Below, in pieces: positions 7,170 through 8,282 of a DNA stretch of 44,068 bases. Within the stretch, counting starts at the first letter, position 1. Each line of letters starts with the position of its first letter. The stretch comes from a virus (lineage: Duplodnaviria > Heunggongvirae > Uroviricota > Caudoviricetes): IMG/VR virus record IMGVR_UViG_2541047745_000010, one strand, 5' to 3'. The notes under the pieces are model-generated. The model did not search any database, was not told where the DNA came from, and saw only the letters and a list, made by a program, of their open reading frames with translations. Both the position numbers and the translations under genes were made by a program.

Positions 7170-7200
7170 AAGCAAAAAACCCGCCTGGTGGCGGGTTTGA
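7170..7200 (-). terminator. strong intrinsic terminator (bidirectional potential) closing the cargo cassette
   Basis: GC stem aacccgcc-tggt-ggcgggtt; on the minus strand followed by UUUUUUGCUUU; A-tract upstream and T-rich downstream on plus. Confidence 0.8.
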
Positions 7201-7215
7201 TTTATAAGAGCTTCA

Positions 7216-7389
7216 CTAACTATCTTTCTTGGGAAAAGTTGAAGGCTTGTCGTGATAGCTTTCCGTCATAATTTCGATATCCCCGAAAGGTACTCTAGCA
7301 ATAATCTCTTGCTCATAGTTATCTAGGAAAGAGACCTCAGGCTCACTTGGTTTAGGTTGTGGTTCATTTTGGTCTTCTGGACAGGACAT
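7216..7389 (-). CDS. small acidic hypothetical protein (57 aa), third gene of the cargo cassette
   Basis: Hand-translated MSCPEDQNEPQPKPSEPEVSFLDNYEQEIIARVPFGDIEIMTESYHDKPSTFPKKDS; ATG 2 nt after the stop of the membrane-protein gene; below the track size cutoff. Confidence 0.5.
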   Translation of the reverse strand: MSCPEDQNEPQPKPSEPEVSFLDNYEQEIIARVPFGDIEIMTESYHDKPSTFPKKDS

Positions 7390-7391
7390 AT

Positions 7392-7922
7392 TCAAACCTT
7401 ACTTATTAACATGCACGTTACAGAAATAATAAAAAATACAAATGACATAACCATCCATCGAAACAACTCATTTACAAACGCTGATTTTTCTTTATGGATT
7501 TTCTCGATTCTATCAATAGCCCTACCATACATTATCAAATGAAATCTGACTGTGTCATCTCTACTACCCCTCAGAAGAAATTCATGTTGTTCAGGTGTTC
7601 GATGCACAGGCATTTTGGGAATATTTCTAAGTTCCCAACATTTCCATAAATAATAAAAACAAAAAACCAAACATACAAAACATGAACATAGACACAATAG
7701 AGACAATCTTGCGGATAGACTAGTCTTTAACTGTTGTCCCAGCTCAAAGGACCCAAAAACGGCTAATAATGCAGAAATCTCAACACCAAGCACAGCAAGA
7801 AGAAAATTAGCTTTGTCCTCTAACCGCCTGTATGTTGTCTTAACTTCTTCATACCTGTCTCTCGAGTACGACAAAATCGTATCTACTTCAAGGCCAACAG
7901 CCTCATTCCTTTGATTGCACAT
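7392..7922 (-). CDS. hypothetical inner-membrane protein (about 3 TM helices), cargo
   Basis: 176 aa; hydrophobic segments FLLAVLGVEISALLAVFGSF, LSLLCLCSCFVCLVFCFYYLW, MSFVFFIISVTCMLI; very AT-rich; no family recognised. Confidence 0.65.
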   Translation of the reverse strand: MCNQRNEAVGLEVDTILSYSRDRYEEVKTTYRRLEDKANFLLAVLGVEISALLAVFGSFELGQQLKTSLSARLSLLCLCSCFVCLVFCFYYLWKCWELRNIPKMPVHRTPEQHEFLLRGSRDDTVRFHLIMYGRAIDRIEKIHKEKSAFVNELFRWMVMSFVFFIISVTCMLISKV

Positions 7923-7928
7923 ATTGTA

Positions 7929-8282
7929 TTAATCGTCAACCTTCTTACAAGGAAACGAACCTATGATTCTCGGCGCATCCATGCTGTTCTGCAGTAGTTG
8001 GACATTCAAGAAACGCGTTTCGGTACCCGGACGGCGAATGAACTCGAAACCGTAATTGTTACCGTCTTTGGCTGGCATAAGCCCCATATCCGCCTTCATT
8101 CCATTACCGTTGCCGAGCGTTTTGATTTTCTGGGAGGTAACTGTCTCACCATTAATCCTGAACAATGAATCAGGAATCAACTCTAATTTGTAGCCACCAC
8201 ACTGAAGCGTGACACCGCCAGGATTCGCAGCAAATGCGAACCCCGGAAGGAAACAGAGTCCAATAACAATCCACTTTTTCAC
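7929..8282 (-). CDS. hypothetical secreted/periplasmic protein with N-terminal signal peptide, cargo
   Basis: 117 aa; GTG start overlapping the hub stop (TAGTG) with GAGGTAGGA RBS; signal peptide KKWIVIGLCFLPGFAFA-ANPGG; two Cys in the mature part. Confidence 0.65.
   Translation of the reverse strand: MKKWIVIGLCFLPGFAFAANPGGVTLQCGGYKLELIPDSLFRINGETVTSQKIKTLGNGNGMKADMGLMPAKDGNNYGFEFIRRPGTETRFLNVQLLQNSMDAPRIIGSFPCKKVDD

Follow-up and report, generated by a model that had tools for sequence, protein, structure and literature searches.

A two-gene membrane-protein cargo in a variable slot of a prophage baseplate operon: a candidate phage-defence or superinfection-exclusion module

What is a set of small, non-structural genes doing inside a phage baseplate operon? 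The question is raised by a 44,068-nucleotide (nt) stretch of Caudoviricetes DNA (IMG/VR record IMGVR_UViG_2541047745_000010; the whole stretch is called the window), in which the interval between the baseplate hub gene and the spike gene holds three open reading frames (ORFs), all on the minus strand, of 117, 176 and 57 amino acids (aa), here named sp117, TM176 and ac57. Comparison with related loci shows that this interval contains a fixed slot, bounded by the sp117 stop and a conserved terminator, whose cargo consists mostly of phage-competition genes and differs among relatives. In the window the cargo is the TM176/ac57 pair, and on present evidence it is an even call whether this pair constitutes a new two-gene system, a membrane effector with its regulator, that would serve abortive infection or superinfection exclusion.

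A first-pass annotation of the window had described the three ORFs as one AT-rich, terminator-bounded cassette of recent origin. The features on which that description was built, namely the ORFs, their overlaps, the terminator and the AT-rich dip, are all real. The GTG start of sp117 has one base in common with the TAG stop of the hub gene, TM176 begins with an ATG 6 nt past the sp117 stop and lacks a well-placed Shine-Dalgarno sequence, and ac57 begins with an ATG 2 nt past the TGA of TM176. The predicted products likewise have the properties ascribed to them: a signal peptide in sp117, three hydrophobic segments in TM176 and an acidic composition in ac57 (isoelectric point 4.25). The G+C content is 36.2% in TM176 (31.6% at third codon positions), 41.4% in ac57, 46.9% in sp117, 54.9% in the hub gene and 50.3% in the spike gene, with a window mean of 48.9%. 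The pair thus deviates in composition from its flanking genes (47–55%), and the cargo segment at 7199-7928 lies at 35–39%; sp117 falls outside the dip in the G+C profile, so the AT-rich stretch covers the last two genes and not all three. Homologues of TM176 and ac57 in other hosts are AT-rich as well (34–45% G+C). The view that non-structural, compositionally foreign cargo sits inside the baseplate operon is therefore supported.

The number of cargo genes had to be corrected. The sp117 family comprises 389 protein clusters across Enterobacterales and is found with the hub gene in essentially every related tail module, whereas a profile search for the TM176 family returned only 39 clusters. 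We therefore conclude that sp117, whose translation is coupled to that of the hub gene, belongs to the conserved backbone and that the insert consists of two genes. The presence of homologues in every related tail module had been named beforehand as the observation that would speak against a three-gene cargo; it was found for sp117 and not for TM176 or ac57. Among 5426 complete Escherichia coli genomes, 236 matched the region, most of them over the hub and 117-aa part only, at ~95% identity, and only 8 carry the full cassette; no third gene is listed in the hit table for any of these 8. In the DX6 prophage, sp117 is kept beside an empty slot.

The signal peptide of sp117 (MKKWIVIGLCFLPGFAFA/AN in the window) is conserved throughout its family, as are two invariant cysteines (C28 and C112), and the AlphaFold2 (AF2) model is an all-beta barrel with a predicted local distance difference test score (pLDDT) of 79. 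Comparison of sp117 with solved baseplate proteins gave no match, and its signal peptide is of the cleavable type. Neither sp117 nor ac57 matched any model in PADLOC-DB v2.0.0. The barrel weakly resembles periplasmic inhibitors of the PliC/MliC type. It is unusual for a baseplate operon to include a signal-peptide protein as a constant component, and sp117 is conserved in essentially all tail modules of the type found in Salmonella phage SEN34. At three loci (L034, L107 and L108) the slot itself holds an ORF of 121–124 aa with a signal peptide, an apparent distant sp117 paralogue (hhalign E 5.9e-5, probability 65%), which looks like a second copy of the backbone secreted protein inside the slot.

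Related prophages show the slot in different states. In DX6 the hub gene and sp117 are followed by 62 nt that contain the terminator and then by the spike gene; in AR_452 a 190-aa gene and a YafO-family toxin gene stand between sp117 and the terminator; and in the E. coli strains IAI1 and AVS0790 this place is taken by the TM176/ac57 pair. Measured from sp117 to the spike gene, the interval spans 774 nt in the window against 62 nt (DX6) and 69 nt (L018) in empty slots. For a wider survey, 107 further loci were fetched with the sp117 profile and combined with the earlier ones, and the sp117 stop and the spike start were located in 114 loci. Across these the slot ranges from 1 to 2355 nt in length, and ORF clustering yielded ~20 or more gene architectures.

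Several of these cargos can be named. They include a YafO toxin with an upstream partner (Pfam, 4e-17), a three-gene cassette resembling PD-T4-9 (CmdTAC) (component C, 8.8e-7; component A, 0.014), a T4 Imm-like superinfection immunity protein in Photorhabdus (3e-15) and a P22-type antirepressor (Bro-N and P22_AR_C), together with DUF2335 and DUF4282 membrane proteins, a phage zinc-binding protein and a secreted OB-fold protein. The PD systems are those reportedly described by Vassallo and colleagues in 2022. With the YafO pair, the PD-T4-9-like system and the Imm-like protein in the slot of relatives, the genomic context fits the functional class proposed at first pass, that of exclusion, abortive-infection or toxin-antitoxin genes. 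The commonest cargo is an unannotated pair, C0+C1, of ~243–272 aa and ~126–153 aa, the smaller protein bearing a motif of the R..AYY..YH type (L042, L045, L052, L053, L056, L058, L060-L062, L067, L069, L070, L083, L087, L088, L099, L100, L102, L117, L119, L040 and L022). This pair had no match in Pfam or PADLOC and is a good candidate for an unrecognised system.

The TM176/ac57 pair is found in this slot in E. coli, Salmonella and Pectobacterium prophages and, going by the source name of protein P0139, in Klebsiella aerogenes; the isolated relatives SEN34 and Mulock hold other cargo there, and the DX6 prophage none. Cargo and flanks disagree in their identities. Between the window and Salmonella locus L010, TM176 is 90% identical, sp117 62% and the spike 69%; between the window and L013, the spike is 98% identical and TM176 49%. 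Because of this disagreement, the sequences indicate that the cassettes are exchanged independently of their flanks. "Recent acquisition" is accordingly too simple a description, since the pair fills the same slot in several genera at 21–99% identity.

The concept of such a slot is already known from morons in tail operons and from prophage defence hotspots, the latter including those of P2-like phages and P4 satellites (Rousset et al. 2022, PMC9122126). The present slot resembles the P2/P4 hotspots in its conserved flanks, its variable cargo rich in defence and toxin-antitoxin genes, its PD-T4-9 (CmdTAC)-like allele and its flank-independent exchange. It differs from them in belonging to SEN34/Brunovirus-type tails on lambdoid prophages, in its position between hub and spike within the baseplate operon, and in having a terminator as its downstream edge. 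Literature searches on PycTM variants, on the cargo of SEN34 prophages and on hotspots in tail or baseplate genes turned up no description of the slot, of its terminator boundary or of the family formed by the membrane protein and its peptide.

The terminator had been taken for part of the cassette. It is instead a backbone element, because it also occurs where the slot is empty and follows each of the other cargos: DX6 (empty), AR_452 and IAI1/AVS0790 have the same terminator. Within 1300-20000 it is the strongest terminator-like site, and 19 nt separate its end from the spike ATG. Of the 79 distinct sequences found just upstream of this ATG, 77, with empty sites among them, have a hairpin (stem of at least 5 bp, folding free energy of −6 kcal/mol or lower) and a T-run followed by the spike Shine-Dalgarno sequence. 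The hairpins use ~20 different 5' arms, with core stems CCCGCC, GCCCAC, CCCTC, CCTCGC, GCCGC, CCAGC, CCTGC, GGCCGC and others, each with a matching 3' arm, and their mean folding free energy is −12.8 kcal/mol as against −3.6 kcal/mol in shuffled sequence. Because 77 of 79 junctions have the hairpin, its stems vary in a compensatory manner across junctions and it is stronger than in shuffles, the hairpin is kept by selection irrespective of the cargo and sets the downstream boundary of the slot. A ~45-nt element at 7155-7198, made up of the hairpin, the T-run and the spike Shine-Dalgarno sequence, is near-identical between loci (L002-L121) whose flanking proteins are only 60–70% identical. This element may also act as the downstream homology anchor for cassette exchange.

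Such a terminator would stop transcription of the slot in the lysogen from entering the spike gene and the baseplate genes downstream. During lytic growth, a Q-like antiterminator would let late transcription read through it. Dependence of the downstream baseplate genes on Q-type antitermination had been proposed earlier, and a Q-like candidate was indeed found (27040-27582), upstream of the lysis and structural genes; from its family matches (Table 1), its product is a candidate late-gene antiterminator of the prophage.

Conservation argues that both cargo ORFs are real genes. The ratio of non-synonymous to synonymous substitution rates (dN/dS) against the Salmonella homologues is 0.105 for TM176 and 0.16 for ac57, which points to purifying selection on both; a small downstream partner of 57–65 aa is present in all 27 loci that carry the membrane gene; and the motif of the partner is conserved even in partners of 13–20% identity. 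On these grounds TM176 and ac57 can be taken as real genes. The opposite explanation, in which both ORFs are non-genes within AT-rich non-coding filler, could appeal to the RefSeq annotation, in which the Prokaryotic Genome Annotation Pipeline called nothing in 7155-7928 (IAI1 and AVS0790, three records inspected), and to the poor ribosome-binding site of TM176. It must contend, however, with the low dN/dS values, with conservation from 99% down to ~20% identity with invariant motifs and constant architecture, with PHROG families for both proteins and with an AF2 model of TM176 at pLDDT 80. The chance that it is correct is close to nil, and the conservation pattern effectively refutes it.

TM176 is predicted to be an inner-membrane protein with three transmembrane (TM) segments at residues 40–58, 73–91 and 156–174; its K/R-rich regions are the N-terminus and the loop at 92–147. 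In the AF2 model a long N-terminal helix runs into TM1, followed by TM2, a helical region in the cytoplasm and a long final helix containing TM3. An invariant motif precedes TM1, consisting of Y24 and RRLEDK at 32–37, and persists from 99% down to 22% identity. The family is small: when 1.84 billion representatives were searched exhaustively with the TM176 profile (HMMER), only 37 matches at E<=1e-3 resulted. None of these 37 relatives is recognised by current Pfam, so the family is not tied transitively to PF18967, and tblastn of TM176 against isolated phage genomes and plasmids gave no match. Neither TM176 nor ac57 matched a structural-protein family, and the full cassette is absent from isolated phage records. 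That no family could be recognised at first pass is borne out, with nothing significant in Pfam or NCBIfam and both PHROGs, 18554 and 18231, listed as "unknown function". In a Salmonella prophage remnant (L008, GCA_006823965.1), recT and an uncalled stretch precede an sp117-like gene, after which come the membrane gene and then the spike gene; sopE lies in the vicinity. The membrane gene has stayed intact there, and its exact protein is recorded on >1000 contigs, which suggests that it was retained after the prophage decayed.

The closest resemblance to a catalogued defence component is to PycTM, the effectors of Pycsar reportedly described by Tal and colleagues in 2021. PADLOC PycTM models matched TM176 weakly (2.6e-4, 6.1e-4 and 1.5e-3), over residues 24–104 only (best match ~24–94), and matched 8 of 33 family members, the best at 3.6e-5; these were the only matches of TM176 in PADLOC-DB v2.0.0, which returned no catalogued system. 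A precomputed PF18967 tag is attached to some TM176 homologues of ~90% identity. TM176 and PycTM (PF18967; PADLOC models) are alike in being small multi-TM proteins with an N-terminal cytoplasmic helix leading into a TM hairpin, and the weak, recurrent profile matches fall in that part. Unlike Pycsar, TM176 has no adjacent pyrimidine cyclase, its match is partial and sub-threshold, and its partner is a 57-aa peptide and not an enzyme.

The C-terminal motif of ac57 is VPFGD.E..TES, and across the partners, out to those of 13–20% identity, it takes the general form [VI]P..[DG].E...ES[FYL]; the N-terminal half of the partners is polar and of low complexity, and the motif is the sole part that they have in common. 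Several longer homologues of the membrane protein (P0188, P0175 and P0157; also L131 229-1029) carry a partner-like segment as a fused extension beyond their last TM helix. The C-terminal tail of P0188 can be aligned with the 71-aa partner of P0159 (E 1e-7), and the same motif is where the ac57 profile falls (E 0.0018). Because the partner segment is fused to the membrane protein in some homologues, a direct functional link between TM176 and ac57 is supported at the level of sequence. Separately, an internal 10/12 promoter within TM176 (ATGACA-16-GATAAT, 7558-7531), which could drive ac57 alone, was considered and rejected, as it is not conserved in homologues of ~50% identity.

Outside the slot, the neighbours of the family are telling of its associations. 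One fused homologue lies tail-to-tail with a CI-like repressor gene, near cro- and Bro-like genes; another homologous pair adjoins an integrase gene in an island (partner of 71 aa); and a third is located on a chromosome, in an island with a Type ISP restriction gene and a UvrD-like helicase gene close by (partner of 38 aa). The Pectobacterium partner has 66 aa. Together with the nameable alleles of the slot, these contexts make up the association pattern of phage-competition genes.

On the reading we favour, at even confidence, TM176 would be a membrane-perturbing or entry-blocking effector, faintly PycTM-like, and the small partner would gate its activity, in trans in the window and in cis in the fused homologues. 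When a competing phage infects, the effector would be released or triggered, and either membrane damage would abort the infection or entry of the phage genome would be blocked.

Several observations weigh against this reading. No convincing promoter of the pair's own was found, a 9/12 sigma-70 match ending at the TM176 ATG itself; because of this, and of the 6-nt spacing from the sp117 stop, the pair may be expressed only with the late tail operon. Three TM segments and a K/R-rich N-terminus would place the C-terminus in the periplasm, which poses a puzzle: the fused partner tail would lie outside, yet the free partner has no signal peptide. The fusions are also hard to square with the simple idea of an antitoxin that is labile and dissociates. 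The PycTM likeness is weak and partial, and TM176 has no PF18967 match in the current Pfam release at E<=10. No cyclase gene occurs in the slot in any of the 27 pair-bearing loci, the neighbours in the window being hub, sp117, ac57 and spike; fold searches returned only generic helical bundles; and the NCBI pipeline annotated neither ORF.

The position of the slot raises a narrower explanation, in which the pair acts purely by entry-blocking superinfection exclusion and not by cell suicide: TM176 in the inner membrane of the lysogen would block the DNA channel of incoming tails, with the small protein as an accessory. The slot does lie within the tail module, beside tape-measure, hub and spike genes, and the fused homologue adjoins a CI-like repressor gene, a classic place for exclusion genes. 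T4 Imm and P22 SieA are phage-encoded inner-membrane superinfection-exclusion proteins that protect the cell. TM176 resembles them in being phage-encoded and in the inner membrane, and in Photorhabdus the slot itself holds an Imm-family protein; it has no homology to them, and Imm and SieA act alone, without a conserved small partner. The gene 15 moron of phage HK97, reportedly studied by Juhala and Hendrix and by Cumby and colleagues, offers a further parallel. It encodes an inner-membrane protein inside a tail operon (PMC3594210), and like the present cargo it consists of extra DNA of deviant G+C content between tail genes that are adjacent in relatives, specifies a small inner-membrane protein, is followed by a terminator and has been proposed to serve exclusion or otherwise benefit the prophage. 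The two differ in that no promoter of its own was found for the present pair, the terminator here belongs to the backbone, the slot is a multi-allelic exchange hotspot and not a one-off insertion, and the cargo has two genes. Entry blocking as the sole function is nevertheless unlikely: the acidic, cytoplasm-type partner is conserved or fused across the family, unlike in known entry blockers; distant homologues stand in contexts like chromosomal defence islands, tied to no particular tail; and TM176 shows no sequence or fold similarity to gp15, Imm or SieA.

The constancy of the pair could also be read as selfish. A membrane toxin and a small antitoxin, analogous to SpoIISA/SpoIISB, might stabilise themselves or the prophage as an addiction pair with no anti-phage role. 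The arrangement suits this idea: directly after the membrane-protein gene comes a coupled gene for a small acidic protein, largely of low complexity, the two genes are co-oriented with a gap of 2 nt, and they stay together in 27 of 27 loci. Other prophages have a YafO toxin pair in this slot, and in Salmonella the membrane gene survives undamaged in the remnant of a degraded prophage. In the SpoIIS system, a cytosolic antitoxin of 56 aa neutralises SpoIISA, a toxin with three TM segments (PMC3057836, PMC4926146). The SpoIISA/SpoIISB(/C) system of Bacillus and the present pair are thus alike in setting a three-TM protein with a cytoplasmic helical part beside a partner of ~56 aa, an antitoxin in SpoIIS and proposed to have the same role here. 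They differ in that the TM segments are all N-terminal in SpoIISA and not in TM176, and in taxa and context. Homology of TM176 to SpoIISA was considered and rejected, as the best match to a Protein Data Bank profile reached a non-significant E of 0.08 over 42 residues, and the comparison is one of analogy only. Fused versions are moreover ill-suited to addiction by differential stability, and many toxin-antitoxin systems of hotspots prove to be defence systems, so that this explanation overlaps with the favoured effector-and-regulator reading. Pure addiction is rather improbable.

The late-operon setting invites a further explanation, that the pair is a lytic-cycle accessory of the phage itself, expressed only from the late tail operon and affecting lysis timing, acting in the manner of a holin and antiholin, or protecting progeny from adsorption to debris. 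The lack of a convincing promoter and the tight packing behind hub-coupled sp117 agree with this, and in Pectobacterium the end of the sp117-homologue gene and the start of the membrane gene share base 4001, which suggests coupling. The prophage, however, already has a full lysis cassette, SEN34 and Mulock have other cargo and DX6 has none, and homologues occur outside prophage late operons, which together make a role of this kind very improbable. An effector delivered by the tail, comparable to type VI secretion system cargo beside vgrG, was also considered and was rejected, since TM176 is integral to the membrane and the slot otherwise holds toxin-antitoxin, defence and immunity genes.

The coordinates of the slot, its edges and the neighbouring genes are collected in Table 1. 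The window is a complete prophage with pphA/yebW on one side and yebY on the other; E. coli AVS0790 matches it with 100% identity and IAI1 with 99.4% over the region. It has a Rac/lambda-like early region, a contractile tail and a complete lysis cassette consisting of a lambda-family holin, a GH24 endolysin and an Rz1-like protein, and it is a lambdoid-regulated E. coli prophage with a SEN34 (Brunovirus)-type contractile tail. Relatives of the tail module among isolated phages are Salmonella phage SEN34 (Brunovirus), Klebsiella phage Mulock, Yersinia phage YP3 and several vB_EcoM phages. Sheath-initiator, baseplate-J and wedge genes lie 3' of the spike gene. At 1398-3502 a pinE-type invertase gene adjoins oppositely oriented tail-fibre and tail-fibre-assembly genes, and this region is probably an invertible host-range switch. 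The prophage carries further accessory genes of toxic or toxin-antitoxin type, namely hokD (29028-29183), ralR (41643-41837), a ydaT-family gene (35059-35481) and kil (37311-37532).

Table 1. Position of the cargo slot, its edges and neighbouring features in the window.
Feature	Position	Strand	Remarks
Spike gene, 250 aa, downstream backbone flank	6402-7154	-	Pfam spike N-terminal domain 2e-44 and Apex motif
Spike Shine-Dalgarno CTGGAG	7168-7163	-	sequence read
Backbone intrinsic terminator, downstream slot edge	7174-7198	-	hairpin 7198-7177, 9-bp stem, 6 G-C pairs; T-run 7179-7174 (T6)
Variable cargo segment, the true insert, from sp117 stop to backbone terminator	7199-7928	-	equivalent segment 1-2355 nt in 114 related loci
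ac57, 57-aa acidic partner, coupled to TM176	7216-7389	-	ATG 2 nt past TM176 stop; AAGG Shine-Dalgarno inside TM176 end; PHROG 18231
TM176, 176-aa three-TM inner-membrane protein, proposed effector	7392-7922	-	PHROG 18554 5e-60
sp117, secreted 117-aa protein, backbone gene	7929-8282	-	PHROG 3443 1e-46; stop is upstream edge of slot
Baseplate hub gene, 355 aa, upstream backbone flank	8282-9349	-	PHROG 196 baseplate hub 5e-89; Pfam E217_GP41 6e-5
Plug gene	9352-9654	-	
Dit-like baseplate protein gene	9654-10241	-	
Tape-measure gene	10241-12250	-	
Candidate Q-like late antiterminator	27040-27582	-	DUF1133 1e-108; Phage_antitermQ 27.0 bits (Pfam cut-off 26)

For annotators, the comparison supplies a correction, since two real genes are absent from the RefSeq annotation. 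The conservation of an intrinsic terminator in the middle of a baseplate operon turns the separation of lysogenic from late transcription into a testable question. Taken more broadly, it is a tentative proposition, held at somewhat less than even confidence, that the TM protein and its micro-partner would form an undescribed family of phage-defence or exclusion systems, with the partner motif separate or fused, and that the slot would be an unmined hotspot with ~20 further candidate systems, the C0+C1 pair among them. The slot is defined precisely enough to be searched for, from the sp117 stop to the terminator, in a tail module that is widespread in Enterobacterales prophages, including Salmonella prophages with sopE nearby, and it could be mined as the P2/P4 hotspots were. 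If the pair is indeed a defence or exclusion module, it would be a compact membrane effector whose peptide regulator is separate in some homologues and fused in others, and it would offer a natural experiment on how such an effector is restrained.

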